Assembly: GCA_964371095.1 (NCBI GenBank)
Contig: CAYJMJ010000004.1
Location: 17,651-81,650, forward strand
Source of the DNA: an uncultured Dehalococcoidia bacterium
GTDB lineage: Bacteria > Chloroflexota > Dehalococcoidia > DSTF01 > JACRBR01
Direction of reading: 5' to 3'
DNA: 64,000 nucleotides
Part shown: positions 4,555-64,000 of the stretch, piece after piece
How the letters are laid out: the number at the start of each line of letters is the position of its first letter
Numbering within the stretch: position 1 is the stretch's first letter
Translations under genes and position numbers: made by a program
Notes under the pieces: model-generated
Databases searched by the model: none
The model's input: only the letters and a program-made list of their open reading frames with translations
Told to the model about the DNA's origin: nothing

Positions 4555-4719
4555 CGGCGCGATTGTACCGGGAATGGTGCGATGGCAGCTTCCGATCGTA
4601 GGGAGGGCCGAGCGTCCGGTATGATCCTCGCAGTCATGGAAGACTTCGAGGCCTACGGACAGCTGCGCGACCGGCCGCGCGACACGCCGCCGCCGGGCGC
4701 GCCCGCCGCGGGGCGCGCG

Positions 4720-4750
4720 CCCCCCCCCCCCCCCCCGCGCCCCCCCCCCC
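4720..4750 (+). repeat. homopolymeric tract C17-GCG-C11 (encodes poly-Pro in every frame)
   Basis: Read directly from the sequence: 4720-4736 is 17 C, then GCG, then 4740-4750 is 11 C. An ATG-initiated frame starting at 4621 terminates at TGA 4756-4758; the LCP frame continues in frame 0. Confidence 0.9.
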
Positions 4751-4805
4751 GCCGCTGATCCTCGCGCCGCCGCGCCCCAAGCGCTCGCACTGGCTTCGCA
4801 ACATC

Positions 4806-5783
4806 GTGATGCTCGCGGCCCTCTACGTCGCGTTGGCCGTCGGCACGACGGTGCAGCCGCTGCCGATACCGTTCACGTCGGTCCACGCCTCGGTGCCGTT
4901 CCCGGGCGGCGCACCGGTGTTGTTCGGACTGCCGGACCGCCCGTTCACGGTGCTCGTCATCGGCCTGGACCGCCGCCCGTCCGAAAAGGGAGCGAGCCGT
5001 ACGGACACCGTGCTGCTCGTGCGCATCGACCCGGGCGCGCACAAGGCTGCGTTCCTCAGCATCCCGCGTGACTCGCTCATGGAGGTCCCGCAGGCCGGCG
5101 GCACCTACACGCAGGACCGCATCAACACCGCCTATGTCTACAACTGGTCATCGAAGGACGGCAGTGCGGCGCCGAAGGCCGTGGCGGCCACGATCGAGCA
5201 CAACCTGGGCATCAAGGTCGACCATTACATCACGTTCGATCAGCGCAGCGCCGAGGACTTGATCCAGGCCATGGGCGGCGTCACGATCGACAACCCGCGC
5301 GAATTCGGCCAGGAGGACTACTCCGACGACGACGTCCACGTCGTGCCGCAGCACTTCGCGAAGGGCAAGATCTCACTCGACGGCTACCAGGCCGTCGCCT
5401 ACGGCCGCATACGCGAAGGCTCCACCGATTTCGATCGCATCCAGCGGCAGCAGCGAGTCGGTTCGGCGCTCATTCATCAGGCATCGTCGCCGATGTCCGT
5501 CGTTCACCTGCCTGCGGCGTTCAACGCGTACCGGAAGACCATCAAGACCGACATGAGCCTGCGCCAGTCGGCGGGCGTGCTGTCGCTGCTCAAGGGCGTC
5601 GACGACGGCGACCTCAAGACGAAGTCGCTCGGCGACGCGGCGGTGTCGTGCAACTCCTGCACGGCGTCGATCCAGCTCCTCGACCCGGCCAGGGTGCAGG
5701 CGATCATCGCCGAAGCATTCGGCGACCCGGAGGCCGGCGCCCGCGCCGCGCAGCTTCTCGCCGCCGCGGGCGTCACGCCGTAA
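4806..5783 (+). CDS. LytR-CpsA-Psr (LCP) family cell-envelope phosphotransferase; N-terminus probably encoded from 4621 in another frame
   Basis: Transmembrane helix MLAALYVALAVG followed by an LCP domain (TVLVIGLDRRPSEKGASRTDTVLLVRIDP...FLSIPRDS...DRINTAY). The frame is open back to 4602 with no ATG. The 4621 ATG frame (MILAVMEDFEAYGQLRDRPRD...PPPP) would join it after a -1/+2 shift inside the poly-C tract. Confidence 0.8.
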   Translation: MMLAALYVALAVGTTVQPLPIPFTSVHASVPFPGGAPVLFGLPDRPFTVLVIGLDRRPSEKGASRTDTVLLVRIDPGAHKAAFLSIPRDSLMEVPQAGGTYTQDRINTAYVYNWSSKDGSAAPKAVAATIEHNLGIKVDHYITFDQRSAEDLIQAMGGVTIDNPREFGQEDYSDDDVHVVPQHFAKGKISLDGYQAVAYGRIREGSTDFDRIQRQQRVGSALIHQASSPMSVVHLPAAFNAYRKTIKTDMSLRQSAGVLSLLKGVDDGDLKTKSLGDAAVSCNSCTASIQLLDPARVQAIIAEAFGDPEAGARAAQLLAAAGVTP

Positions 5784-9169: not shown

Positions 9170-10306
9170 ATGGAGGTGCCAACCGTGGGACGTCGCACAG
9201 AGGCCGCTGCCCTCCAGAGCAAGGTCCGCGCGGCACGGGTTGCCGGGGGCCTGTCGCAACACCATCTTGCTGAACGGGCCGGCATCACCCGCCAGGCGAT
9301 CGTGGCGATCGAGGCCGGGCATTACACGCCCAACACCGCCGTCGCGCTCCGCCTTGCCCAGGCGCTCGAATGCCGGGTCGAAGACCTGTTCGTCCTGCCG
9401 GAGCCCCGCGTCGAGCGGCCGGCGGCGATCGCAGGCGGACGCGTCGCACCGGGCGCGCGCGTCGTCGTGGCGGCCGTCGGCGACCGGCTCGTCGCGCATC
9501 AGTTGGGCGGCAGCGGCCTGTTCGCCCCGGCCGACGGCGTCGCCGTGAACGCGGCATCGAAGGTCCAGCTCTTCATCGACCCCGAGCAGGCCGAACGCAC
9601 CGCGTTTCTCGTCGGTTGCGACCCGAGTCTCGGCATCCTCGCGTCGTGGGTATCACGGCGTTCCCAGGCGGCGCGGCTCGTCTGGCTGCCTGGATCGAGC
9701 CAGGCCGCCCTCGACGCGTTGAAGCACTCCACGGCCCACGTCGCCGGCATCCATCTCCGCGACGCGAAGACCGGCGAGTTCAACGTCGCCCACGCGCGGC
9801 GCGCGCTCGCCAGCGCCGGTGGCATCGTCGTCAGCTACGCCGGATGGGAGCAGGGATTCATCGTCGCGCACGGCAACCCGAAGAAGCTCGGCTCCATCGC
9901 GGACCTCGCACGGCCAGGCGTGCGTCTCGTCAACCGCGAGGCCGGCTCGGGGAGCCGCGCTCTCCTCGATCAGTTGCTCGGCGGATCCCGCATCCCGGCC
10001 GAGCGGGTGCTCGGGTACGACGACGTCGTCAGGAGCCACATGGCCGTCGCGCGCGCCGTGGCCAGCGGCGCCGCCGATGTCGGTATCGGGCTTCGCGCAG
10101 TCGCCAGGGCCTCCTGCGGATTCGTGCCGCTGGCCGACGCCCGGTTCGATTTCCTGATCCCGAGCGAGCACCTCAAGCATCCGGCGATCCAGGTATTGCT
10201 CGACGTCATGCAGTCCGCGTCGCTCCGCGCCGACCTGTCCGCCCTGCCGGGATATGACGTGAGCGCCACGGGAACGGAACAGGCGCGATTCGGCGCCGTC
10301 GCCTGA
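9170..10306 (+). CDS. transcriptional regulator, XRE-type HTH fused to a PBP-like (ModA-like) substrate-binding domain; putative molybdate/tungstate-responsive
   Basis: N-terminal HTH (LSQHHLAERAGITRQAIVAIEAGHYTPN) and a C-terminal periplasmic-binding-protein-like 2 fold. Next to mop and modABC. The alternative TTG at 9155 was used by the ORF track. Confidence 0.8.
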   Translation: MEVPTVGRRTEAAALQSKVRAARVAGGLSQHHLAERAGITRQAIVAIEAGHYTPNTAVALRLAQALECRVEDLFVLPEPRVERPAAIAGGRVAPGARVVVAAVGDRLVAHQLGGSGLFAPADGVAVNAASKVQLFIDPEQAERTAFLVGCDPSLGILASWVSRRSQAARLVWLPGSSQAALDALKHSTAHVAGIHLRDAKTGEFNVAHARRALASAGGIVVSYAGWEQGFIVAHGNPKKLGSIADLARPGVRLVNREAGSGSRALLDQLLGGSRIPAERVLGYDDVVRSHMAVARAVASGAADVGIGLRAVARASCGFVPLADARFDFLIPSEHLKHPAIQVLLDVMQSASLRADLSALPGYDVSATGTEQARFGAVA

Positions 10307-11212: not shown

Positions 11213-12084
11213 GCGGCGCCGTCCACGCATCGCACCGCACCGCCGGCGGCGTCCGGGCGGGCCTCGGTTGGCTCTTCAGCCCGCCGGCATTGCTCTTCGC
11301 GGCGTTTCTCGCGGTGCCCCTCGCGGCGTGCGGCGGCTCGCCCACGCCCGACGCGACCGCGATCCCGGGTCAGCGGCCATCGGGTAACATCACCGTCCTC
11401 GCCGCTGCCGACCTGCGCCTCGCGTTCGACAAGATCGGGGCCGCGTTCGAGAAGACCTGCGACTGCCGCTTGACGGTGACCTACGGCTCGTCCGGGACGT
11501 TCGCGACGCAAATCAAGCAGGGCTCACCTGGCGACGTCTTTGCGTCCGCGGACGTGTCATATGTCGATGGGTTGGAACAGGACGGGCTCATCCTTCCTGA
11601 CACAAAGCGGGACTACGCTATCGGACGCATCGTCCTGGCAGCGAGCGCCGGCTCACGATTGACCATCGACGGGTTGGCTGACCTCGCCGGCCCCCAGTTC
11701 AAGAAAGTCTCCATTGCAAACCCTGATCACGCTCCATACGGCCGTGCGGCGAAGGAAGCCCTGACCGCACTGGGTCTGTGGGACAAGATCGAGCCGAAGC
11801 TCGTGCTCGGCGAGAACGCCGCGCAGGCCACCCAGTACGTCGAGACAGGCGACGCCGACGGTGGCATCATCCCGCTTTCGCTTTCCATTCAGAACAAGGA
11901 CAAGATCCGGTACGTACTGATCGACGACAGACTCCACAGTCCCCTGAGGCAGGCGGCCGCCGTCCTCAAGCAGAGCAAGCACGCCGACGTGGCAAGAGCG
12001 TTCCTTGACTACCTCAACGGGCCGGAGGGGCGGCCCATCATGCGCGAGTACGGGTTCGTTCTTCCCGGGGAACAGGCGCCATGA
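11209..12084 (+). CDS. second ModA-family substrate-binding lipoprotein (divergent paralogue, possibly tungstate/other oxyanion)
   Basis: Lipobox (LAACGGS) and a ModA-like fold, but the anion-binding motif reads LAAADL instead of SAASSL. ATGA overlaps on both sides. Confidence 0.85.
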   Translation: MSGAVHASHRTAGGVRAGLGWLFSPPALLFAAFLAVPLAACGGSPTPDATAIPGQRPSGNITVLAAADLRLAFDKIGAAFEKTCDCRLTVTYGSSGTFATQIKQGSPGDVFASADVSYVDGLEQDGLILPDTKRDYAIGRIVLAASAGSRLTIDGLADLAGPQFKKVSIANPDHAPYGRAAKEALTALGLWDKIEPKLVLGENAAQATQYVETGDADGGIIPLSLSIQNKDKIRYVLIDDRLHSPLRQAAAVLKQSKHADVARAFLDYLNGPEGRPIMREYGFVLPGEQAP

Positions 12085-33720: not shown

Positions 33721-34614
33721 ATGACCTACTCGATCGTCGCGCGCGACGCAGCGACGGGCGCCCTCGGCGTCGCCGTGCAGTCGCACTACTTCTGCGTCGG
33801 CGCGAGCGTCCCCTGGGCCGAGGCCGGCGTCGGCGCGGTCGCGACGCAGGCGATGAGCGAGACCTCGTACGGCCCGCTCGGCCTCGACCTCATGCGCGGC
33901 GGCAAGACGGCGCCCGAGGCCCTGCGCGCGCTCGTCGCCGCGGACGTCGGCGCCGCGATCCGCCAGGTCGCGATGGTCGACGCTGTGGGCAACGCCGCCG
34001 CACACACCGGCGACCACTGCATCACCGAAGCCGGCCACCGCACCGCCGAAAACGTCTCGGTGCAGGCCAACATGATGGAGCGCGGTACCGTTCCTGACGC
34101 GATGCTCGCCGCGTACGGCGCCGCGACCGGCGACCTCACCGAACGGTTACTCGCCGCACTCGACGCCGCCGAGGCGGAAGGCGGCGACATCCGCGGACGC
34201 CAGTCCGCCGCCATCCTCGTCGTCCACGGCGCACGCGGTACGCCACCATGGACGGCACGCCATGTCGACCTCCGTGTCGAGGATCACCCGGCGCCGCTCG
34301 TCGAGCTGCGCCGCCTCGTCACGCTCCGGCGGGCCTACGACGCCTCCGACCGCGGGTTCGAGCGATTCCGATCGGGCGATATCGACGGCGGCATCGCCGA
34401 AATGGAGGCCGGACGCAACCTCGCGCCGGACAACGCCGAGATCGCGTTCTGGCAGGCGCTCGCGCTCGCCCGCCGTGACATCCCGGCCGCGCGTGCGCTG
34501 ATCGCGCAGGCCCGCGCCGCCGACCCCCGCTGGTCCGAGCTCCTCCGCCGTCTCCCCGCCGCCGGCCTCTTCCCGGAAAACGCCACGCTCATCGCGGAGC
34601 TGCTGCGGGAATAA
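33721..34614 (+). CDS. DUF1028-family (Ntn-hydrolase-like) protein with C-terminal helical repeat
   Basis: MTYSIVARDAATGALGVAVQSHYF N-terminus, characteristic of DUF1028. Confidence 0.75.
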   Translation: MTYSIVARDAATGALGVAVQSHYFCVGASVPWAEAGVGAVATQAMSETSYGPLGLDLMRGGKTAPEALRALVAADVGAAIRQVAMVDAVGNAAAHTGDHCITEAGHRTAENVSVQANMMERGTVPDAMLAAYGAATGDLTERLLAALDAAEAEGGDIRGRQSAAILVVHGARGTPPWTARHVDLRVEDHPAPLVELRRLVTLRRAYDASDRGFERFRSGDIDGGIAEMEAGRNLAPDNAEIAFWQALALARRDIPAARALIAQARAADPRWSELLRRLPAAGLFPENATLIAELLRE

Positions 34615-34699
34615 CGGAAGCTGGAGGCTAGAAACTGGAGGCTGGAGAGAGTTGTCCAATCGACGGCGGCGTGGTCGCCATCCAGCTTCCAGCCTCGCT

Positions 34700-34720
34700 C
34701 CGACCTCCGACCTCCGACCT
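34700..34720. repeat. heptamer microsatellite (CCGACCT)x3 directly after the stop codon of the minus-strand hydratase gene
   Basis: Read from the sequence. It is part of an imperfect inverted-repeat region (34617-34700) between two convergent genes. Confidence 0.8.
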
Positions 34721-35515
34721 CTACAAACCCGTAAACCGCGGCTCGCGCTTCTCGCGGAACGCGCGCACGCCCTCGCGCGAATCCTCCGTCGAGCCGGCGA
34801 GGCGGCGCATCGCTTCCCCCATGCGCAGCGCGTCGTCGAACGAGAGCGCCTGCGAGCGCACCGCCACTTCCTTCGTCGCCGCCATTGCTTGCGGTGCGTT
34901 CCGTGCGAGGCGGTCCGCCCATCGCATCGCCTCGGCGATGAGTTCGTCGTGCGGCACGACCCGGTTCACCAGCCCCATGTCATACGCCCGCGGCGCATCG
35001 ACGCGATCACCGACGAGCAGCAGCTCCAGCGCCGCGCCGAGCCCGATCACGCGCGGCGCGCGGATCGCCCCCGCGATCGTCGGCACGCCGATCTGCACCT
35101 CCGGAAACTGGAAGATCGCCCGCTCCGACGCGATCCGCAGGTCGCACGCCAGCGCCAGCGTCAGCCCTTCGCCGATGCAATAGCCGTTCACGGCCGCGAT
35201 CGTCGGCTTCCAGACGTCGAGCCCGCCCTGCAGGTCCCAGTCGAAGCGGGTCTCCCACAGGTGGCGCCCCGGGCCGTGCGGGTGCTGCCGAGTCTCGGCT
35301 TCCGCCTTCCCCCACGTCCGCACGTCGGCGCCCGCCGAGAAGGCTCGGTCGCCCGCGCCGGTGACGATCGCGACGGCGACCTCCGGATCGTCGCGAAACG
35401 CGCTCCATGCATCGTGCAGCTCGACGTGCATCGCGCGGTCGAACGTGTTGAGCGCCTCCGGGCGATCGAGCGTGATCAGCGCAACGCGACCCTGCGGCTC
35501 ATACCGAACAGCCAT
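34721..35515 (-). CDS. enoyl-CoA hydratase/isomerase family protein
   Basis: Crotonase fold (ITGAGDRAFSAGADV...GYCIGEGLTLALACD). Start at MAVRYEP, preceded by GGGAGGGA. Confidence 0.85.
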   Translation of the reverse strand: MAVRYEPQGRVALITLDRPEALNTFDRAMHVELHDAWSAFRDDPEVAVAIVTGAGDRAFSAGADVRTWGKAEAETRQHPHGPGRHLWETRFDWDLQGGLDVWKPTIAAVNGYCIGEGLTLALACDLRIASERAIFQFPEVQIGVPTIAGAIRAPRVIGLGAALELLLVGDRVDAPRAYDMGLVNRVVPHDELIAEAMRWADRLARNAPQAMAATKEVAVRSQALSFDDALRMGEAMRRLAGSTEDSREGVRAFREKREPRFTGL

Positions 35516-36038: not shown

Positions 36039-36093
36039 CCACTCCCTAGCATCGCCGCGCGCGCTCGCGGCACGCCTTCGCTGTCCGCGGTTG

Positions 36094-36119
36094 CTCTCTG
36101 CTCTCTGCTCTCTGCTCTG
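36094..36119. repeat. heptamer microsatellite (TCTCTGC)x3-4 ending 1 nt before the stop codon of the minus-strand DSD1 gene
   Basis: Read from the sequence. A GC hairpin (gccgcg...cgcggc, 36046-36063) lies just upstream. Confidence 0.8.
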
Positions 36120-36120
36120 C

Positions 36121-37209
36121 CTACGCCCGCCGCTGCTCGGGATAACCCCGCGCCGCGATCGGCCACGCTCCGGCGACCTCGCCGCCCTCGATCGCGTACA
36201 TCACGTCGTGCAGGTTGATCGTCGGGTCGACGTGCGACGGCCACAGTTCGATGCGGTCACCGACGGCGAGCACAGCCTCGGCGGGCAGCGCGATCGTCGC
36301 GTGCTCGTCGCTCAGGAACAGCACCTTCGCTCCCTCGATCCCCTTCACCGCCGGGTTGCCGTGATCGACCGAACACGCCTTCAGCCCGCTGTCCGAGGCG
36401 CACTGCTCCGGGCGCGGGCGGCTCAACACCGTGCCCAGCACGCTGAACGCCTTCTCGAACGGCATGTCGAGTTGCGCGTACGCGGTGTCCATCAGCGCGT
36501 ACGAGCCTGCCTGGATCTCCGTGATGCCTTCCATCGTTCCCGTGATGTCGTACGTGCCGCTGCCTCCGCCGCTGACGATGTCGCAGCGCAGCCCCGCATC
36601 GCGCACCTGGCGCACTGTCGTGAGCAGCCGCTCCATCGCCTTCGCCGTCTTCTCCTCGCGCTCGGCGCGCGCGGCAATGCCGACGACGTGCCCCTCGTAT
36701 CCCATCAGCCCGCGCAGGATCACACCCTCGGTCGCATCGACGCGCTTCGCCAGCTCGACGGCGGGCTCGCCCGCCGCGATGCCGCACCGCGGCATGCCGA
36801 CGTTGACGTCGACGAGGACGCCGACTTCGACGCCCGCCAGGCGCGCGGCCAGCGCCAGGTCGTTCAGCCCGTACTCCGAGTCGACGGCGACGATGATGCT
36901 CGCCTGCGCCGCCAGCTTGGCCACGCGCGCGGCTTTGCCCGGCCCGACGACCTGGTTCGCGATCAGGATCTCATCCGTCAGCCGTTCGCGTACGACGACC
37001 TCCGCCTCGCCGACGGTGGCGCACGTCAGACCCGTGCAGGAGCCCGCCGCGATCTGCCGCCGCGCGATCTCCGGCGTCTTGTGCGCCTTGAAGTGCGGGC
37101 GCAGCTTGCACGGCCGCCCGGCGAAGTAGTCCGCCATGCGGCGAATATTCCGCTCCATCGCCGCCACGTCGACGACCAGCGCCGGCGTGGGAATCTCGTG
37201 CACCTTCAT
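36121..37209 (-). CDS. D-serine deaminase-like / D-threonine aldolase (alanine-racemase N-terminal domain family, DSD1)
   Basis: PLP-binding Lys region (HFKAHKTPEIARRQIAAG) and a C-terminal DSD1 domain. Start at MKVHEIP, preceded by AAGGAG. Confidence 0.85.
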   Translation of the reverse strand: MKVHEIPTPALVVDVAAMERNIRRMADYFAGRPCKLRPHFKAHKTPEIARRQIAAGSCTGLTCATVGEAEVVVRERLTDEILIANQVVGPGKAARVAKLAAQASIIVAVDSEYGLNDLALAARLAGVEVGVLVDVNVGMPRCGIAAGEPAVELAKRVDATEGVILRGLMGYEGHVVGIAARAEREEKTAKAMERLLTTVRQVRDAGLRCDIVSGGGSGTYDITGTMEGITEIQAGSYALMDTAYAQLDMPFEKAFSVLGTVLSRPRPEQCASDSGLKACSVDHGNPAVKGIEGAKVLFLSDEHATIALPAEAVLAVGDRIELWPSHVDPTINLHDVMYAIEGGEVAGAWPIAARGYPEQRRA

Positions 37210-37319
37210 GGCCTTGCTCCTTTCGGTCGTCCTGACCCGCTGCGCCGAATCTAGCACGAACGCCGCATACGCCCACGGCCGCGCTGGCCCGCACGGCCAT
37301 CGCTCGTTACCCTGCTCAC

Positions 37320-37898
37320 ATGACCGAGCAATCAGGACGGCGGCCCAGGCGCAGGCGCGGCGGACGCGGCGGAGCAAGCCGGCCGCGCGGCGAAGGCAGC
37401 CCCGGGCAGCCAGCGGCCAGCCCGGAGCAGCCGCCCCAGGCCGACGCGCGCGTGCCAAGGCAGGACACGCGTCGCGGCCGCGGCGGCGGCGGCGCTCCCG
37501 AGCGGCCCCGCACGCCCCCAGGACCACCAGGACCCGCGCCCGGCGGCCGCATCCAGCGCGCCCCCGCCGCGGGCGAGCGGCCGAAGCGCGAGCGCGCTCC
37601 GTCCGACGGCCGCTCGCGCGATCGCGGCCCGCAACGTGACCGCGATCGCGGCCCGCGCGTCTTCGAAGCGCCCGTACCTCAAGACGAGCGCTCCATCGAG
37701 CTTGGCGCCATGTTCAAGGAGGCGCAGACCGCGCTCCGCGACGCCCGCAAGGCGCTCGAGAAACGGAAGGCCGACTTCGACGACGAGCCGGAGTGGATGC
37801 TCGAGCAGTACCGCGCCGCCGAAAAGCGCTTCGAGGAGGTCTCCACCGAGTGGTCGGAGCACCTCGCGAAGACCGGCCGCAAGGTCGTCCGCCGCTAG
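37320..37898 (+). CDS. Arg/Gly/Pro-rich protein with structured C-terminal helical domain (hypothetical)
   Basis: The N-terminal 120 aa are low-complexity RGG/Pro-rich. The C-terminus (MFKEAQTALRDARKALEKRKADFDDEPEWMLEQYRAAEKRFEEVSTEWSEHLAKTGRK) looks like real protein. The true start could instead be the internal ATG near 37711. Confidence 0.45.
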   Translation: MTEQSGRRPRRRRGGRGGASRPRGEGSPGQPAASPEQPPQADARVPRQDTRRGRGGGGAPERPRTPPGPPGPAPGGRIQRAPAAGERPKRERAPSDGRSRDRGPQRDRDRGPRVFEAPVPQDERSIELGAMFKEAQTALRDARKALEKRKADFDDEPEWMLEQYRAAEKRFEEVSTEWSEHLAKTGRKVVRR

Positions 37899-55231: not shown

Positions 55232-56170
55232 GTGAACGAAGTGTTAGGCCTCTTTCAAAGGACTCACCGGCCCGGCGCCGAGCAGCTGTCCGCCTATCTC
55301 GACGGCCGCCTCGACGTCGCCGCCGCGGCCCGGATCGAGGCACACGTAACGGCGTGCGACGCTTGCCGGAACCGCCTGGCGGAGCTGCGGGCGACGCGCG
55401 ACGTGCTCCGTTCGCTGCCCGAAACCGCGCCGCCCCGCTCGTTCCGCCTCCGCCAGTCCGACGTCGAGGCGCCGCTCCGCGCCCGGCCCGCCCCGCCGAT
55501 GGTCCGCGCCATGCCGATGCTCGGCGCCGCGGCGGTCGTCGTCTTCGTCGCCGTGGTCGGCGTCGATCTCTCCCGGTCCGATGGCGCGTCGCAAAGCACC
55601 GCGTCGCTAAAGGCCGGCCAGCCGATGGCGGCCGCCGCGCGCACCACGCAGGCGAGCGGCCCGGCTGAATTGACGTCGGGCGGCGCCCAGGGCGACGCGG
55701 CCGCGCCCCCGGCCGATGCCAACTCCGATCGATCCACGACCTCCGGCGAAGCTGGAACGGGAGTCGACACCACTGCGCCGGATCCTGCCGTCGGGCTGAA
55801 CCCTCCGCTACCCGAGATCCCGGGCTCGCTACCCCCGACGCCACTCGCCGAGGGACAGCTCGCGGCCGCACCGGCCGCCAACACCACCCCCGACCCCTCC
55901 GCCCCTTCGAAGGAGGCAGCGTCGGACGTCGAGGCGCCCTCGACCGGCGCGGCACTCAACCCGCCGGCGGCGACGCCACCCGCCGAGGGACAGCTCGCCG
56001 CCGCGCCGGCCACACCGGCATTCCGTGCCGCGGCCGACCGTAGCGCCGCCGAAGCATCGGGCAGCGGCACCGACACCGCGTATCGCATCGCCGAGGCATT
56101 ATCCGCCGCCGTCGCGCTCCTTGCGCTCGGGACGGTGATGATCTGGCGCGTCAGAAGGAGAGAGGTGTGA
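55232..56170 (+). CDS. zinc-finger anti-sigma factor (single TM, Pro/Ala-rich extracytoplasmic tail)
   Basis: HxxxCxxC motif (EAHVTACDACRNRL) and a transmembrane helix. Lies immediately after the ECF sigma gene. The linker has an internal tandem repeat, PP(T/A)P(L/P)AEGQLAAAPA, present twice. Confidence 0.75.
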   Translation: MNEVLGLFQRTHRPGAEQLSAYLDGRLDVAAAARIEAHVTACDACRNRLAELRATRDVLRSLPETAPPRSFRLRQSDVEAPLRARPAPPMVRAMPMLGAAAVVVFVAVVGVDLSRSDGASQSTASLKAGQPMAAAARTTQASGPAELTSGGAQGDAAAPPADANSDRSTTSGEAGTGVDTTAPDPAVGLNPPLPEIPGSLPPTPLAEGQLAAAPAANTTPDPSAPSKEAASDVEAPSTGAALNPPAATPPAEGQLAAAPATPAFRAAADRSAAEASGSGTDTAYRIAEALSAAVALLALGTVMIWRVRRREV

Positions 56171-56916
56171 CCATGAACCCGAAGAGAATCGCCATCCTGC
56201 CCGCCGTCGCGTCGGCGATATTCGTCGCGTCCGTCGCGGCCACCTGCGGCAGCACGACGACGCGCATCGAAAACACGGGCGCCAACCAACAGTCCGGCAT
56301 CACCGTCTCGGGCGAAGGCAAGGCGACCGGCAAGCCCGACGTCGCGATGGTCACGCTCGGCGTCTCCCGCCTCGCCGATTCCGTCGATGCCGCTCGCAAT
56401 GGCGCCGCCGCCTCGCTCGACGCCATGATCAAATCGATGACCGACAACGGCATCGCGAAGGACGACATCCAGACGGTGCAGTTCAACATCTCGCCGGAGT
56501 ACGACTACTCCAACGGCAAGCAGAAGCTGACCGGCTTCCGCGTGACCAACGTCGTGTCCGCGAAGATCCGCGACATCGGCAAGACGACCAAGGTCGTGGA
56601 CGACGCCGTCACGGCGGGCGGCAACGACGTCCAGGTGCAGAACATCTCCTTCACCATCGACGACCCGGAAGACCTCAAGAAGCAGGCGCGCGAGGCGGCC
56701 GTCGCCGACGCCAAGGCGAAGGCGCAGACGCTCGCCTCAGCGACCGGTGTCGCCGTCGGCGAGCCGATCAGCATCTCGGAGAGCAGCGCCGTCTCGCCGA
56801 TACCCTACGCGGCCGAGCTGCGGGGCGTCGCCGGCGACACGGCTCCCGCGACGCCCATCGAACCCGGCACGCAGGACGTGACCGTGAACGTCACCATCAC
56901 GTGGAGCATCAAGTAG
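56167..56916 (+). CDS. SIMPL-domain (DUF541) secreted/lipoprotein
   Basis: SIMPL fold (ITVSGEGKATGKPDVAMVTLGV...GFRVTNVVSAKIRD). GTGA overlap with the anti-sigma stop. Confidence 0.85.
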   Translation: MTMNPKRIAILPAVASAIFVASVAATCGSTTTRIENTGANQQSGITVSGEGKATGKPDVAMVTLGVSRLADSVDAARNGAAASLDAMIKSMTDNGIAKDDIQTVQFNISPEYDYSNGKQKLTGFRVTNVVSAKIRDIGKTTKVVDDAVTAGGNDVQVQNISFTIDDPEDLKKQAREAAVADAKAKAQTLASATGVAVGEPISISESSAVSPIPYAAELRGVAGDTAPATPIEPGTQDVTVNVTITWSIK

Positions 56917-58224: not shown

Positions 58225-59352
58225 CTAGGGAACCGGGACCACGTGTACGGGGCCCGGGCGTGACCGAAACCCATCCGGCATCACAAGCAGAAGCAGTGCC
58301 GCCAGCGCGGCGGTCGATGCGCCGAAGGCGAACGTCGCGGGCGGGCCGAACAGATCCCATAAACCGCCGCCAATCACGCTCGACAGCAGCAGCATGACGC
58401 CGACACATGCGTTGTACAGGCCCATCGCCGTGCCGCGGCGCTCCGCCGGCACGAGATCCGCCACGTACGCCTTGCCCACGCCCTCTGTGAACGCGATGTA
58501 CGCGCCGTAGATGATGAACAGCGGCCACACCGCCCACGCATCCGTCGCCAGCGCGAACCCGGCGTACACACCCGCGAAGATCGCGAAGCCGGCGACCAGC
58601 ACCGGCTTGCGGCCGATGCGATCGGAGCGGATGCCGGCGGGCAGCGACAGCGCGGCGTACGAGATGTTGTAGAGCACGTACGCGAGGACGATGGCCGTCG
58701 CGCCGAGGCCGAGGTTCTGCGACCGCAGCACGAGGAATGCGTCGCTCGAATTTCCAAACGCGAACAGCAACGTGACGCCGAGGAAGATCAGGAAGCGGCG
58801 ATCGTAGCCGCGCAGCGAAAATAGCGGCGGCAACGTGCCTTCGCGGGGCACGTGGCGGATCTCGCGCACGAAGAGCAGCACGAGAACGGAGATCAGCCCG
58901 GGGATGCCGGCAATGAGGAAGATCGGGCGGTAGTTGTCGTGGCCGAACCATGCCAACAACCCGAGCGCGGTGATCGGCCCGATGATCGCGCCCGAGGTGT
59001 CCATGGCGCGGTGCAGCCCGAAGGCGCGCCCGCGCGACGCCGCGTCCGTCGACTCGGCGATGAGCGCGTCGCGGGGCGCGGTGCGTATGCCCTTACCGCT
59101 GCGGTCGAGGAAACGGACGAACAACACCGCAGGCCAGTGGTACGCGAGCGCGAGCGCCGGCTTTGCGATGGCGGCGAGACCGTAGCCGGCGAACGTGAAC
59201 GGGACGCGGCGCCTGAGCCGGTCCGAGAACCAGCCGAACACGAGCTTGAGCAGGCTGGCCGTGCTTTCGGCGACGCCCTCGATGACGCCGACGGCGACGA
59301 CCGGCGCGCCGAGCGTGCTCGTCAGGAACAGCGGAACGAGCGGATACGCCAT
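58225..59352 (-). CDS. MFS transporter (N-terminus anomalous, see findings)
   Basis: MFS fold with motif A (GWFSDRLRRRVP). A conserved TM1 sequence (RNVWLLGVVSLFADISSE) is in frame upstream of the first ATG, with no canonical start codon before the stop at 59539-59541. Confidence 0.8.
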   Translation of the reverse strand: MAYPLVPLFLTSTLGAPVVAVGVIEGVAESTASLLKLVFGWFSDRLRRRVPFTFAGYGLAAIAKPALALAYHWPAVLFVRFLDRSGKGIRTAPRDALIAESTDAASRGRAFGLHRAMDTSGAIIGPITALGLLAWFGHDNYRPIFLIAGIPGLISVLVLLFVREIRHVPREGTLPPLFSLRGYDRRFLIFLGVTLLFAFGNSSDAFLVLRSQNLGLGATAIVLAYVLYNISYAALSLPAGIRSDRIGRKPVLVAGFAIFAGVYAGFALATDAWAVWPLFIIYGAYIAFTEGVGKAYVADLVPAERRGTAMGLYNACVGVMLLLSSVIGGGLWDLFGPPATFAFGASTAALAALLLLVMPDGFRSRPGPVHVVPVP

Positions 59353-59820
59353 CTCGCTGCTGATATCGGCGAACAGGCTGACGACGCCGAGGAGCCAGAC
59401 GTTGCGCGAGACGCCGCCGGCGCCCGGCTGCGTCTCGGTCGCTTCAGTGCCGGATTCGGTGGTCGACGTGGCGGCACTCCTCTCGTCAGGGGGCTCGTGC
59501 GTGCCGTCATTCTGGCGGCGCCAGCGGCCGGCCGCTAATTAACGCTCTCCAACCATTGGACCATCGCCGGCGCGACGTCGGACGAGACATCGTCGCCCGT
59601 GCCGCCGCTCGACCTGCGCTCGGCGCGGCGGCCGTGCTCGCCCGCGCCGGCGTGCCGGCCTGATGGATCGTCCCGGCCGTCGCCGCCTCCCTCCTCAGCT
59701 TGTCCCTCTGGCGCGCCGCCCCCACCCGCACCTGACCCCCGCAACCACACCTCCACGGCGCACCCTAACCAACGACGGTGAGCACCAAGTAGTCGACGGC
59801 GTTGCCCGATGCCCCGTGCG

Positions 59821-60034
59821 CCTTTGCTGTTTGCTGTCGGTCCCTGTGCTCCCTGCTCCCTGCGCCGTCCCTTTGCTGTTTGCTGCTTGCTGTTTGCTGT
59901 CGGCCCCTCTGCTCCCTGCTCTCTGCTCTCTGCGCCGCCCCTTTGCTGTCTGCCGTCTGCTGTCGGTCGTTCTGCCTCCTGCTCTCCGCCCTCCGCTCTC
60001 TGCCGGCTCTAACCTCTAACCTCTAACATCCAAC
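59821..60034. repeat. minisatellite: three imperfect 49-70 bp units (CCTTTGCTGTTTGCTGTCGG..CTCCCTGCTC(T/C)CTGCGCCG.C) followed by (TAACCTC)x3
   Basis: Read from the sequence. Units begin near 59821, 59870 and 59940, and are built from TTTGCTG and CTC(T/C)CTG sub-repeats. The array ends 30 nt upstream of the ilvD start. Confidence 0.85.
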
Positions 60035-60067
60035 CACGCTACCCTGTCCCCCACACGGAGGCACGCC

Positions 60068-61741
60068 ATGACGTTCGATCCCAAGCACAACTCCCGCACC
60101 ATCACCGACGGCCCGACGCGCGCACCCGCGCGCGCCTACTACTACAGCATCGGCTTCTCGACGGAGGACATCGCCAAGCCGATCGTCGGCATCGCCAACA
60201 CGTGGATCGGCACCATGCCGTGCAACTTCAACCTCCGCCTTCTTGCCGCGAAGGTCGCCGAGGGCGTCCGCAAGGCCGGCGGCACGCCGATGGAGTTCAA
60301 CACGATCGCCATCAGCGACGGCATCACGATGGGCACCGAGGGCATGAAGACCTCCCTCATCTCGCGCGAGGTCATCGCCGACTCCATCGAGCTGACGACG
60401 CGCGGCTACATGTTCGATGCGCTCGTCTGCCTCGTCGGCTGCGACAAGACGATTCCCGGCGCGGCGATGGCGCTCGCCCGCCTCAACATCCCCGGCATCA
60501 TCGTCTACGGCGGCACGATCCTGCCCGGCACCTTCGACGGCCACGACGTCAACATCCAGGACGTGTTCGAGGGCGTCGGCCAGCACGCCGCCGGCACGCT
60601 CTCCGATGCCGACCTCGATCGCCTCGAGCACGCCGCGTGTCCCGGCGCCGGCGCCTGCGGCGGCCAGTTCACCGCCAACACCATGGCCCTCGCGATGGAG
60701 TTCATCGGCCTGTCGCCGATCGGCAGCGCTAGCGTCCCCGCCGTCGACCCGCGCAAGGACGCCGTCGGCGTCCGCGCCGGCGAGATCGTGATGGACGTGC
60801 TGCGCCGCAACCAGCGCCCGCTCGACATCCTCACCCGCGCCGCCTTCGAGAACGCCATCGCCGGCGTCGCCGCGACCGGCGGCTCGACGAACGCCGTGCT
60901 CCACCTGCTCGCCCTCGCCCGCGAGGCCAACGTGCCGCTGAACATCGACGACTTCGACACCGTGAGCGCCCGCACGCCACTGCTCGCCGACCTCAAGCCC
61001 GGCGGCCGTTACCTGGCCGCCGATCTCGACAAGGCCGGCGGCGTCCAGCTCGTGGCGCAGCGCCTCGTCGCGGGCGGATTCCTCGATCCGAAGCAGCAGA
61101 CGCCCGGCCGCTCGCTCGGCGACGAGGCCGCGCTCGCCGTCGAGACGCCGGGACAGGACGTCGTGCACACGCTCAAGGATCCAATAAAGGCGACCGGCGG
61201 CCTCGTCATCCTGCACGGCAACCTCGCGCCCGAGGGCTGCGTCGTGAAGGTCGCAGGGCACGAGCGCCTGACGCACCGCGGCCCCGCACGCGTCTTCGAC
61301 CGCGAGGAGGACGCGATGACCGCCGTCACCGAAAAGCGCATCAAGCCCGGCGACGTCGTTGTCATCCGCTACGAGGGGCCCAAGGGCGGGCCCGGCATGC
61401 GCGAGATGCTCGGCGTCACCTCGGCGATCGTCGGCGAAGGGATGGGCGAGACCGTCGCGCTGCTCACCGACGGCCGCTTCAGCGGCGCGACGCGCGGCCT
61501 CATGGCCGGCCACGTCGCGCCCGAGGCCTGCGTCGGCGGACCCATCGCCGCCGTGCGCGAAGGCGACACGATCAGCTTCGACATCCCGAACCGCCGCCTC
61601 GACGTCGAGATCAGCGACGACGAGATGGCAGCGCGCCTGCGCGACTGGCGCGCCCCCGAGCCGCGCTACAAGACCGGCGTCATGGCCAAGTACGCCGCCC
61701 TCGTCTCATCCGCCAGCGAAGGCGCCATCACGCGGGTGTAG
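60068..61741 (+). CDS. ilvD: dihydroxy-acid dehydratase
   Basis: IlvD/EDD family: CDKTIPG, the Fe-S Cys ligands ([17 protein letters not shown]) and C-terminal SGATRG. GGAGG Shine-Dalgarno. Confidence 0.95.
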
Positions 61742-61774
61742 GGGATCAACAGCGAATCCACACCCTTCGCGGAA

Positions 61775-62233
61775 TTACCCAGACGGGGGGCGCCACGGAA
61801 ACCTTCTGGCCTCGGTCTCGAGGTCATCTGCGAAACGCTTGACGTCTCCAGCAGCGAGCCGAAATTCCAGTGACTCGCCCTCAACTCGTTGGTCATAGTC
61901 CAGTGCCGGGCGACAAAACTCCAGACGGAATCGAGCAAAGAGAGAGATTGCGCCGTCGTCGCGGCGAGCAGAGAACGAAAGGTTCGGCTCGATAGCATCA
62001 AACTCGCGAGCCTGACCGCCTTCCGCGACTTGCCTCAGCCAGTTGACCAGATCCGTGATCTCGTACGTCAGTAGCGCCGCTTCGCGAGCACGCCACCGCC
62101 GATCGCCGTAGGTTACAGCCAACTCGATCACCAGCCAGTTTGCGTCCGATTCGTCCTTCTCTCCGGCTGGGAACTGATACCCCGCGATGTCAAGCTGCAG
62201 CGAATGCTCTGGGTCGGGTTCGATACGCGCCAT
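61775..62233 (-). CDS. hypothetical protein (152 aa) in a low-GC islet; immunity-protein-like
   Basis: Clean ORF in sequence that is visibly lower in GC (roughly mid-50s %, against about 70% for the window). No family assigned. Confidence 0.5.
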   Translation of the reverse strand: MARIEPDPEHSLQLDIAGYQFPAGEKDESDANWLVIELAVTYGDRRWRAREAALLTYEITDLVNWLRQVAEGGQAREFDAIEPNLSFSARRDDGAISLFARFRLEFCRPALDYDQRVEGESLEFRLAAGDVKRFADDLETEARRFPWRPPSG

Positions 62234-62379
62234 GGCTGTGCACCTATCGGATCAGGGGGAGTCCCGCGTCTCTGGCCAATTGCAGCAACTGCACGGGCGT
62301 GACTATTGCCGTCACTTCAAGGCTTGCAGGTCTACAGATCGCGATCGTACGTCACTAGGAAGTCGGCGCCCGCGTGTTT

Positions 62380-62408
62380 CCGACCTCCGCCCTCCGACCT
62401 CTCAGCCA
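62380..62408. repeat. heptamer microsatellite CCGACCT-CCGCCCT-CCGACCT ending 4 nt before the stop codon of the minus-strand beta-propeller gene
   Basis: Read from the sequence; same motif as 34700-34720. Confidence 0.75.
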
Positions 62409-62412
62409 CCCA

Positions 62413-64000
62413 CTACGGCGGGAACGCCGCCTGCAGCAGCGTGTCCCCGTTCAGCACGTACAGCACGCCTTTCCCCTCGTCCACCGCCACCGCCCGCAGG
62501 TCCGTGAACGACGAGCTGACGATCTGACGCAGGAACGCGCCCTCCGCCGACGCGACGATGATCCGCTTGTTGCCCCGGTCCGCTACCACCAGCCGGTTCG
62601 ACCCCGGCAGCACCGAAAGCGACGCCGGCGACACCAGCCCCGTGTCGATGCCCGCCAGCGGAAACGGCGCCTCCGTCTTGCCGATGAACCGCCGGATGCC
62701 CGCCTTCGCGTCGAGCACGTAGACGTCTTGCCCCACCGCCAGCTCGGTCGCGTCGGTCAGCGTCGCGCCGTCGAGCAGCCCCGTTCGCTCGCTGTCGTAC
62801 CCGCTCTGTCCGGGCAGATAGCGCCACACCTGGTTCGACTTCACGTCGAGCACATACAGGTTGCCGCCCGATCCCGCGATCGCGGCGATCGAGCCGAGAC
62901 TGTCGGAGCCGCGAACCGTTACCGGCAGCGCGCCGCTGTCGGGAAAGTACGCGAACGACTGCCGCTTGTCGTCCACGATCGTCAGGCTCTTCGTCTCCTC
63001 CGACCAGGCGATCTGCATCGGCCGCGACGCCGTCATGAATCCCGCCGGCTCGCCTTCGCGGAACACGGATTCGGGCGCCTGTCCGCCCGCGAGCGCCACG
63101 CGCAGCACGCGCTTTCCCTTCGCATCGAGGAAGTACGCGCTGCTCCCGCCGATCACTGCGCTCGTCAGCGAAAGCGAACCCGTCGCCTGCTGCTGCAGGT
63201 CGGCCACCGTCGTGAAGTCCTTGATCTCGTACACCGCATCGAGCACGGCCGTCGCCGCGGCCACGTCCGATGTCAGGCCGACCACGTCCGCGTTGTCCTT
63301 GTGGATCTTCGCCGCGTCCACCAGCTTCGCGCGCGCGTCGCCGAGGAGTTGCCGCTTCGCGGCCGAGTCGCCCGTCGCCTGCGCCCGCGCGTTCGCCTCG
63401 CGCGCGGCCGCCACGAGCTTGGTGAACTTGTCCTCGCGGCTCTGCTGCACCGAGCCCGGCAGTTGCCAGTACGCCAGCCCGCCGAGCAGCGCCAGCGCGA
63501 TGACCGCGAACACGACGAGCTTGGGGACCTGGAACTGCGGCAGCGCCGCGATCCCGGTGCTGCGCCGATACCGCGGCGCGGCCGAGTCGCCGCGCAGGCG
63601 CACGTTTGTCGCGCGCGACGGCGACGTCGCGTCCGTGATCTCCCGCACCTGCTCTTCGATCGGACGTGGCGGCAGCGGCATGTCGCCGATGACGCCTGCC
63701 GCCAGCGACGCCTCGGCCGGCTCCGGCCCGCCGCTCGCAGGCGCCGCGACGAGCAGTCCTTCGGCGGCCGCCGCGTCGTCGGCCCGTGCCTCCGGCGGCT
63801 GTTCGACCGGCGCGCCGTTGCGCGTCAGGAATTCGGGCGGCTGCTCGGGCTCCGCCTCGAAGCACGACAGCAGCACGAGCGCCATGTTCGGCCGGTCGCG
63901 GCAGAGCAGGTACAGCTCCGGCAGTACCTCGTCGGATCCGCGCGACAGCACGCGCTCGATCTGTGCCTCCGGCAAGATCTCCGCGAGTTGCGTCGACGCA
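62413..64000 (-). CDS. membrane protein with extracytoplasmic NHL/YVTN-like beta-propeller repeats (5' end beyond window)
   Basis: Transmembrane helix LVVFAVIALALLGGLAYW, then repeated ...NLYVLD, ...DVYVLD and ...VLYVLN blades. The frame is still open at the window edge. Confidence 0.6.
   Translation of the reverse strand, partial: ASTQLAEILPEAQIERVLSRGSDEVLPELYLLCRDRPNMALVLLSCFEAEPEQPPEFLTRNGAPVEQPPEARADDAAAAEGLLVAAPASGGPEPAEASLAAGVIGDMPLPPRPIEEQVREITDATSPSRATNVRLRGDSAAPRYRRSTGIAALPQFQVPKLVVFAVIALALLGGLAYWQLPGSVQQSREDKFTKLVAAAREANARAQATGDSAAKRQLLGDARAKLVDAAKIHKDNADVVGLTSDVAAATAVLDAVYEIKDFTTVADLQQQATGSLSLTSAVIGGSSAYFLDAKGKRVLRVALAGGQAPESVFREGEPAGFMTASRPMQIAWSEETKSLTIVDDKRQSFAYFPDSGALPVTVRGSDSLGSIAAIAGSGGNLYVLDVKSNQVWRYLPGQSGYDSERTGLLDGATLTDATELAVGQDVYVLDAKAGIRRFIGKTEAPFPLAGIDTGLVSPASLSVLPGSNRLVVADRGNKRIIVASAEGAFLRQIVSSSFTDLRAVAVDEGKGVLYVLNGDTLLQAAFPP

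Follow-up and report, generated by a model that had tools for sequence, protein, structure and literature searches.

The stretch of DNA analyzed here, 64,000 nucleotides (nt) of an uncultured Dehalococcoidia bacterium (assembly GCA_964371095.1, contig CAYJMJ010000004.1, positions 17,651 to 81,650) that we refer to as the window, carries a tandem array of 7-nt units between two divergent genes. One is a major facilitator superfamily (MFS) transporter gene on the - strand, and the other is ilvD, encoding dihydroxy-acid dehydratase, on the + strand. The features of the locus, in the order in which they lie, are as follows.

58225-59352, - strand: MFS transporter gene (PF07690 on the identical gene of contig L001); its true start is uncertain.
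59535-59642, - strand: remnant of an alpha/beta (dienelactone-type) hydrolase gene, its last ~35 codons (...GEHG...AMVQWLESVN and stop), aligned with contigs L005, L004 and L084.
59643-59822, no strand: C-rich non-repetitive spacer, 180 nt between the hydrolase remnant and the array.
59823-59871, + strand: block A, seven heptamers, TTTGCTG x2, TCGGTCC, CTGTGCT, CCCTGCT, CCCTGCG, CCGTCCC (register parse; copy 1 in the repeat search).
59842-59871, - strand: G-quadruplex motif, GGG N8 GGG N4 GGG N6 GGG, the sole canonical-like one in the array (regular-expression scan).
59872-59941, + strand: block B, ten heptamers, TTTGCTG x4 (one of them CTTGCTG), TCGGCCC, CYCTGCT x3, CTCTGCG, CCGCCCC.
59942-60004, + strand: block C, nine heptamers, TTTGCTG, TCTGCCG, TCTGCTG, TCGGTCG, TTCTGCC, TCCTGCT, CTCCGCC, CTCCGCT, CTCTGCC.
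59973-59979, + strand: TGCCTCC, the exact complement of GGAGGCA (60057-60063) in the region of the ilvD ribosome-binding site (RBS).
60007-60034, + strand: tail array, CTCTAAC x3 (60007-60027) and a degenerate ATCCAAC (found by Tandem Repeats Finder, TRF, as 60007-60035).
60040-60045, + strand: predicted -10 box of ilvD, TACCCT, from the conservation of TAnnnT in 31/31 relatives.
60057-60061, + strand: Shine-Dalgarno sequence of ilvD, GGAGG, conserved in the relatives examined.
60068-61741, + strand: ilvD, 557 amino acids (translation; PF00920 and PF24877 on the identical protein).

Read in one 7-nt register, positions 59823-60004 are 26 consecutive heptamers that follow a single plan three times over, (TTTGCTG)n, TCGGYCC, (CYCTGCT)n, CCGYCCC. 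Blocks A, B and C contain 7, 10 and 9 units (49, 70 and 63 nt), so that block B differs in length from the other two by integral heptamers; block C is the most degenerate copy (75% identity with block A over 40 nt), and two bases, GG, separate it from the CTCTAAC x3 tail. TRF reported a period of 63 repeated 2.7 times at 59824-59993 (score 172), a period of 70 repeated 2.2 times at 59847-60003 (score 179) and period-7 arrays at 59872-59900, 59907-60003 and 60007-60035, while a repeat search of the locus returned three copies at spacings of 63 and 63 nt and no inverted repeats within the array. Autocorrelation, judged against 2000 first-order Markov simulations, gave z values of 7.8 at lag 7, 4.4 at lag 14, 7.5 at lag 63 and 6.0 at lag 70, with the remaining lags near 0. 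The array is strongly biased in composition (C 41.5%, T 33.2%, G 20.7%, A 4.6%), and its + strand lies largely within an A-free run of 201 nt (59810-60010), the next longest in the window being 73 nt.

An earlier examination of this DNA, the sequence-only reading, had described three imperfect units of 49-70 bp, which are the three blocks just given, in their common 7-nt register. It had also stated that the repeat is not a CRISPR (clustered regularly interspaced short palindromic repeats) array, and we agree, since the units abut without unique spacers and the blocks are themselves made of heptamers. The extent it gave was too generous, however. Within the interval 59760-60067 given there, the 63 nt from 59760 to 59822 are not repetitive; the array, said to fill nearly the whole divergent promoter region, occupies 217 of at least 529 intergenic nt, with 59535-59642 being the hydrolase remnant; and the repeat, said to end 30 nt before the ilvD ATG at 60068, has its last CTCTAAC unit ending at 60027, 40 nt before it, and a degenerate tail that reaches 60039. 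The suspicion that the Leu/Cys-rich open reading frames (ORFs) across the array are not genes was well founded: nothing corresponding is conserved in relatives, a repeat of period 7 passes through each of the three frames in turn, and these ORFs are by-products of heptamers rich in CTG and CTC.

With the three CTCTAAC units, every + frame contains a TAA and every - frame a TAG, which makes a six-frame translational stop just 5' of the predicted ilvD promoter. By analogy with what has been noted for the TAACTGA repeats of Beggiatoaceae, this stop is probably a by-product of a 7-nt unit that happens to contain stop codons.

Closely similar copies of the locus are present in other assemblies, and the ilvD protein is identical on three other contigs (ENA metagenome assemblies). 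Contigs L001 and L002 are ~99.8% identical to the window in the array region. Between L001 (34x coverage) and the window there are 8 substitutions over the 3469 nt compared, and the array of L001 is gap-free and identical. L002 has 100 N within the array, and the sequence on both sides of this gap agrees with the window. We considered the possibility that the gap conceals a longer allele and rejected it: array positions 26-80, exactly 55 nt, are present in both flanks, a pattern that resembles an assembly-graph junction left unresolved (the value of k being inferred). Contigs L003, L164 and L165 start inside the array. With three of the five other contigs broken off in the array and one carrying an N gap, the array does break low-coverage short-read assemblies.

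The array varies between strains in whole units. In the window, L001, L002, L003 and L165 the sequence after block C reads GG CTCTAAC x3, whereas L164, from a different sample, reads GG CTCCAAC CTCCAAC CTCTAAC x3, that is, five CTCYAAC units. L164 thus has an insertion of exactly 14 nt, two heptamers, along with one substitution elsewhere in the array, and is 99.1% identical to the window over 2478 nt with the 14-nt gap counted (the compared contigs range from 99.1 to 99.8% identity). The suggestion that this is a variable-number repeat was therefore correct, and the related species described below differ from one another far more. No strain variation was seen in blocks A-C, where the coverage consists of the window, L001, and L002 in two halves. 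Scanning metagenomes with ilvD brought up only relatives of 95% identity or lower and no further near-identical strain.

The closest ilvD genes (94-95% amino-acid identity) belong to metagenome-assembled genomes (MAGs) of uncultured soil Chloroflexota, labeled by their depositors as Chloroflexia or Dehalococcoidia. Among species with 93-95% ilvD identity the number of heptamer units at ilvD ranges from none to ~31 (33 or more in L164); the relatives themselves have these motifs in 5 to ~17 units, as degenerate traces or not at all. L166 has the motifs of the window in the order of the window but in a single block, TTTGCTG x3 and TTTGCCG followed by CAACCTC TAACCTC TAACTTC CAACCTC. In L167, whose intergenic region is 45 nt long, four to five CTCYAAC units run right up to the -10 box. 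The CTCYAAC runs of both these relatives are found at the place equivalent to that in the window. L005 has five degenerate units (TTCTCTG CTCTCTG ATTTCTG ACCTCCG ACCTCTG), L084 has only traces, and L004 and L023 have no array. Upstream of ilvD there is thus a repeat site of long standing and rapid turnover; the window lineage shows the largest expansion seen, and only there is the composite block triplicated.

The window lineage also differs from its relatives in what lies beside the array. In L005, L004, L084, L166 and L167 an intact hydrolase gene stands between the MFS gene and ilvD on the - strand, and the gene calls in L166 and L167 bear PF01738 and PF20408. Since only the remnant at 59535-59642 is left in the window, the array stands where this lineage largely deleted a gene. 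Homology with the relatives stops near 59640, and BLAST matched the spacer at 59643-59822 neither to the relatives nor to any other part of the window.

To place the array among similar sequences, we considered TRF results (at least 3 copies, at least 80% match) for the window, for 460 kb of close relatives and for 1.3 Mb of more distant ilvD loci, a sample of ~1.8 Mb around ilvD loci. Among non-triplet tandem periods, 7 dominates in the window, in the Chloroflexota relatives and in other soil lineages alike. The window has five period-7 arrays and none at any other non-triplet period; the close relatives have 23, with 1-6 arrays each for periods 4, 5, 8, 10 and 11; and the distant lineages have 44, with 2-8 each for the other non-triplet periods, one Terriglobia locus having 13 arrays within 21 kb. 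The sequence of the unit differs between loci, with at least five motif classes in the 64 kb of the window. In GC-rich loci 29 arrays are intergenic and 13 fall within called ORFs (the gene calls being approximate), and the arrays mostly stand just past stop codons, beside genes of all kinds. The four sister arrays in the window are all intergenic and lie 0-12 nt from a stop codon.

34616-34721, no strand: GGAGGCT x4.6 (at 34616) and CTCCGAC x3.4 (at 34698), between convergent genes, each abutting a stop codon.
36092-36118, no strand: TGCTCTC x3.9, 3 nt from the stop of a - strand gene, with the CYCTGCT motif of the ilvD array.
62379-62401, no strand: TCCGACC x3.3, abutting the stop of the - strand gene 62402-63865.

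The TGCTCTC array at 36092 matches the ilvD array at 90% over 30 nt, in keeping with the earlier remark that the motifs overlap with heptamers found at gene 3' ends. The TCCGACC array is 0 nt from the listed ORF and 11-12 nt from an overlapping ORF called by third-codon-position GC content (GC3), and its position is conserved in L005. The two arrays between convergent genes pair as one hairpin (34612-34726; -48.7 kcal/mol, z=-3.07, 1/200 shuffles as stable), and these inverted arrays may be a bidirectional terminator. The ilvD array is without an inverted partner.

Motif classes recur at non-orthologous loci without flanking homology: CTCCAAC/ATCCAAC at L005:20098 and L013:16063, TTTGCTG at L004:20903, CYCTGCT at window 36096, and CTCCGAC at three or more loci. 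The motif repertoire thus looks restricted, with more sharing than independent random seeding would give. A dispersed 63-nt element was rejected as an explanation, as BLAST of the array against the ~1.8 Mb of related loci found the 63-nt block nowhere else and gave only short heptamer-run matches (window 36092 and L004 20902). Two further arrangements were seen in relatives. At L016:3550-3697, between orthologues of window 56044-56916 and dnaJ, there is a duplicated module of GGAGGTG x3 and CCTCCGA x4, where the window has only 24 nt. In L054, a Thermomicrobiales MAG, ilvD is flanked by complementary heptamer arrays (9944-9974 and 11677-11714), with (TTCTCAC)n in the 5' leader, 3' of the extended -10 box TGTAGAAT, and (GAAGTGA/GAAGTAC)n directly past the ilvD stop codon; base pairing between these two arrays could join the 5' and 3' untranslated regions (UTRs) of a single mRNA.

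The arrays have a polarity. In 17 of 22 strand-skewed arrays, a small and partly non-independent sample, the purine-rich strand has the nearer ORF end on its 5' side, and 12 of those 17 directly follow a stop codon, their purine-rich strand being sense. The ilvD array fits this rule, since its purine-rich strand is the - strand and ilvD is its 5' neighbor. GC skew, however, is negative (-0.05 to -0.11) in every 8-kb bin of the window whatever the gene orientation, so the + strand of the window is probably the lagging strand, and the + strand is the C-rich strand in 4 of the 5 heptamer arrays of the window. The polarity may for these reasons track the direction of replication and not gene ends; it is confounded with the GC skew, and on 64 kb the ORF and replication-strand explanations are inseparable.

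Whether the array could affect ilvD depends on where the promoter lies. A scan of 59300-60150 for promoters and terminators found nothing. Because the sigma-70 consensus is probably unsuitable for this lineage, we turned to conservation across relatives. A TAnnnT hexamer lies 6-14 nt 5' of the GGAGG ribosome-binding site in 31/31 relatives, usually after GC, with the variants TACCCT, TACGCT, TAACCT, TAATCT, TACGAT and TAGGAT, and several of the more distant relatives have TTCCGn ~17 nt 5' of it; neither the window nor L005 has a convincing TTGnnn or TTCCGn -35 hexamer at 16-18 nt. We infer that this hexamer is the ilvD -10 box, which would put the start site near 60052-60055 and give a leader of ~15 nt. 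On this assignment the array is probably DNA 5' of the promoter (~-13 to -230) and outside the ilvD mRNA, and the -35 region would be made of CTCTAAC units. As the DNA adjoining the -10 box is periodic, slippage would leave the -35/-10 region unchanged, and since gain or loss of units keeps the sequence next to the -10 box, tuning of promoter spacing in the classical sense would be impossible. A change in unit number should shift only the upstream DNA and the divergent MFS side, in multiples of 7 bp.

We find it reasonably probable, though well short of certain, that the ilvD array is a slippage-driven, largely neutral heptanucleotide repeat that has grown into a higher-order satellite, with an effect on ilvD that is incidental at most. 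The array would grow and shrink in 7-nt steps by slipped-strand mispairing (replication slippage) together with unequal exchange, and the window lineage may have expanded it once the hydrolase deletion freed the region from constraint. A mutational bias toward slippage in 7-nt steps would account for the existence of the class as a whole better than would a function dedicated to ilvD. Supporting this reading, the three blocks differ by whole heptamers, and the periods of 7 and of 63/70 are both strongly supported. Any effect on ilvD expression would be incidental because a change in copy number leaves the predicted core promoter as it was. The array shares with the heptanucleotide-repeat class its unit length, intergenic position, period-7 excess, copy-number variation and polarity.

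Several observations weigh against a neutral origin. The order TTTGCTG and then CTCYAAC persists 5' of ilvD across species with ~8-10% ilvD nucleotide divergence; the restricted motif repertoire is not what a purely random process predicts; and the polarity of the arrays hints at selection or a directional mechanism. The CTCTAAC units make TAACCT hexamers and would form the -35 region, so they may affect the promoter, and the -10 assignment itself is a prediction from conservation.

The best surviving alternative, which we regard as possible but unlikely, is that the array is a variable repeat that tunes expression, its copy number setting the strength of the ilvD or MFS promoter by way of a protein that binds the repeat, of TAACCT hexamers that compete as -10-like sites, or of helical phasing of the upstream DNA. 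The promoter-proximal CTCYAAC run does differ between strains (3 vs 5 units), and the window, L164, L166 and L167 all retain such a run directly 5' of the ilvD -10 box. The tail takes up the -35 region that precedes the predicted -10 box, and it contributes the -10-like hexamers TAACCT, TAACCT and TAACAT; several relatives have a -10 box of this type. Heptad repeats also modulate promoters in Vibrio cholerae (10.1101/2021.05.14.444153) and Haemophilus influenzae (PMC12721329, PMC8262952), and reportedly at Nostoc recO/recF (10.1101/2022.06.06.494920). However, ilvD is a housekeeping gene rather than a contingency locus; the CTCYAAC run stands at no constant distance from the -10 box, adjoining it in the window and L167 and lying ~35 nt further away in L166; L004, L023 and most other relatives do without any array; and arrays of the same class stand mostly at gene 3' ends. 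A 7-bp period is out of helical phase, and no candidate binding protein is known. The sequence-only reading had proposed that a variable repeat in the promoter of this branched-chain amino acid biosynthesis gene could tune expression or promoter spacing. We find no support for such a role: the -10 box predicted at 60040-60045 lies 3' of the array, a geometry that speaks against control by spacing, and arrays of this class, which mostly follow stop codons next to genes of all kinds, show no tie to promoters or to branched-chain amino acid control. Three observations had been named there as speaking against a regulatory role: the first, a transcript starting downstream of the array, is what we predict; the second, an invariant array, is contradicted by the strain data; and the third, absence from promoters elsewhere, holds in part, similar arrays occurring elsewhere but mostly not in promoters.

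A second alternative, which we think improbable, is that heptamer arrays are a functional family anchored to ORF ends in this Chloroflexota lineage and in other soil bacteria. Their target might be RNA or the ribosome: they might, for instance, hold ribosomes at termination, fold into bidirectional hairpins where genes converge, or bring 5' and 3' UTRs together as suggested for L054. In that case the ilvD array would be an over-grown member of the family, with CTCYAAC units that also serve as -10-like hexamers and determine the output of the promoter. Bearing on this proposal are the small number of recurring motif classes, the purine-rich sense strand right after stops, and the Shine-Dalgarno-like or anti-Shine-Dalgarno-like cores (GGAGG / CCTCC) of many arrays.

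It is quite unlikely that the array is a transcribed element. Such an element could belong to the ilvD leader, given an unrecognized promoter upstream and CCUCC/UGCCUCC motifs that mask the RBS, or it could be a purine-rich 5' leader of the MFS gene read from a - strand promoter near ilvD. TGCCTCC (59973-59979) exactly complements GGAGGCA at the RBS and this pairing is retained in the centroid structure, although the complementarity is relevant only if array and ilvD are co-transcribed, and a 7-nt complement in 217 nt of CT-rich sequence could easily arise by chance. The heptamer array of L054 does lie between a strong TGTAGAAT -10 box and the ilvD RBS, and hence in the leader there, and the Beggiatoaceae TAACTGA repeats stand just 5' of start codons (PMC4679880). 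In the window, however, the conserved -10-like hexamer is 3' of the array, and a hexamer scan of the whole intergenic region found + strand TAnnnT only in the tail array and at the -10 box itself. On the - strand, where we looked for an MFS promoter, TAnnnT occurs only at 60041 and 59767, and neither is conserved. The RNA folds no better than shuffles (z = +1.57 for the + strand, +0.5 for the - strand), and a structured RNA on either strand was rejected on these values. An ilv leader-peptide attenuator or T-box was likewise rejected: the scan of 59300-60150 gave no terminator, attenuator or upstream promoter, an Rfam search of the whole window gave no match at gathering thresholds, and there was no conservation.

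Very unlikely, too, is a role as a non-B DNA element or strand-asymmetric insulator that stops stray rightward transcription before ilvD, whether as a G-quadruplex/i-motif, a triplex-prone polypyrimidine tract or a C-rich unstructured Rho-loading site. The strand asymmetry is extreme, as shown by the 201-nt A-free run and the excess of C over G; there is one G-quadruplex motif (- strand, 59842-59871); most shuffles are predicted to be more structured than the + strand RNA; and the G-rich heptamers of Xanthomonas and Nostoc form quadruplexes in vitro (PMC4692102). Four G3 tracts occur in block A only, however, and the sister arrays CTCCGAC, TGCTCTC and TCCAACA are without G3 runs, so a quadruplex is not general to the class, and we rejected it as a general property. 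A G at about every fifth base interrupts the pyrimidine tract, which is unfavorable for a triplex, and there is no + strand gene upstream that would send transcription into the array.

That the array is an assembly artefact of low-complexity reads can be dismissed almost entirely: the short-read contigs L003, L164 and L165 do break inside it and L002 has its 100 N there, but L001 spans an identical gap-free array despite 8 substitutions over 3469 nt, L002 agrees with the window on either side of a gap whose 55-nt flank overlap resembles an unresolved graph junction, and homologous motifs occupy the same site in related species.

The remaining features of the locus and window concern other subjects. 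The reading frame of the MFS gene stays open from the ATG at 59352 up to an in-frame stop at ~59538, and this extension (59353-59538, - strand) contains no ATG, GTG or TTG, yet encodes a plausible first transmembrane segment, NVWLLGVVSLFADISSEM. The gene may therefore use a non-canonical start codon, have a truncated N-terminus or contain a sequence error; its called length in relatives is 374 amino acids in L167 and 420 in L166. On the other side of the array, L165 (1807-3327, compared with window 61742-62400) is 99.6% identical through ilvD and diverges completely right after the ilvD stop, with a 261-amino-acid gene in place of the low-GC WapI-like gene of the window (61775-62233), which places the latter in a strain-variable islet. 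A tRNA scan found none.

Two other low-complexity sites were seen in the window. At 4721-4751, near the 5' end of the ORF 4602-5783, poly-C tracts C17 and C11 are split by GCG; a long homopolymer is a classic site of slippage and phase variation and also a typical source of sequencing error. At 37333-37452, within the - strand gene 36121-37713 and amid short tandem repeats (TRF 37270-37494), the + strand is T-free for 120 nt, presumably as a low-complexity coding segment.

Intergenic heptamer repeats rank among the commonest unexplained repeat types of bacterial genomes, and this array is an unusually clear example, in which three layers of change can be read at a single site: slippage of units between strains, whole-heptamer differences between blocks, and gain and loss between species. 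As it adjoins a conserved housekeeping promoter, any effect on expression is directly measurable, and the array could serve as a strain marker. The published polarity rule is extended here to an uncultured high-GC soil Chloroflexota lineage, and since the units are mostly unable to form G-quadruplexes, this argues against the quadruplex as the general cause of the rule. The over-representation of intergenic heptamer repeats was noted in 2007, and to our knowledge no mechanism or function has been established since.

Heptamers are the over-represented longer repeat unit in many bacteria, according to Mrazek 2007 as cited in PMC4692102, where slippage linked to the polymerase footprint is given, again with reference to Mrazek, as the proposed cause of the excess. 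The same paper treats GGGAATC in Xanthomonas, GGGGA(C/T)T in Nostoc PCC 7120 and the short tandemly repeated repetitive (STRR) sequences of cyanobacteria, and states that the G/purine-rich strand of the Xanthomonas and Nostoc heptamers is sense just after a stop, or antisense within ~50 bp upstream of an ORF (PMC4692102). The arrays described here resemble these heptamers in being scattered, head-to-tail and intergenic, in varying in copy number at the same locus between relatives, in following the same polarity rule and in forming inverted pairs between convergent genes. They differ in having no single consensus unit, and most of their units are unable to form quadruplexes; the ilvD array in particular has 26 units plus a tail of 3-4, mixed motifs and a 63/70-nt period, in a high-GC Chloroflexota host. 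It is not a quadruplex repeat of the GGGNATC type, which has G3 or more in each unit, as it contains a single such motif and the sister arrays none. Nor is it a repetitive extragenic palindromic (REP), miniature inverted-repeat transposable (MITE) or hairpin element, given that it has no internal inverted repeat, folds at z = +1.57/+0.5 and has a 63-nt block found nowhere else in the sequence searched.

The heptamer-derived satellites of Chloroflexus aurantiacus, (GATAGRA)n at 22 loci (PMC6749651), come from the same phylum and are likewise built of heptamers, dispersed and intergenic, with longer periods that are multiples of 7; the unit there is another one, whereas here several unrelated unit classes occur in a GC-rich genome of a Dehalococcoidia-class soil MAG lineage. 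Heptamers adjoining promoters and varying in number between strains are known from V. cholerae ctxAB (TTTTGAT; 10.1101/2021.05.14.444153) and H. influenzae hmw1A/hmw2A (PMC12721329, PMC8262952), and the geometry of the CTCYAAC run, directly 5' of the predicted core promoter, resembles that of the ctxAB repeats. Those repeats are AT-rich binding sites of ToxT/H-NS or lie in a 5' UTR processed by RNase III, and they serve virulence or contingency genes, while the neighbor of the present array is a housekeeping gene, no binding protein is known, and its class stands mostly at gene 3' ends. The TAACTGA repeats of marine Beggiatoaceae (PMC4679880) are also abundant intergenic heptamers with stop codons in the unit, three copies of which close all frames. 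They have one fixed unit, usually in 2-6 copies a few nt from the start codon and hence in the leader, unlike the ilvD array with its heterogeneous units 5' of a predicted -10 box. The ilvD array differs from the published cases in that its units are heterogeneous within a single array, in its higher-order repeat of 63/70 nt and in the lineage of its host.

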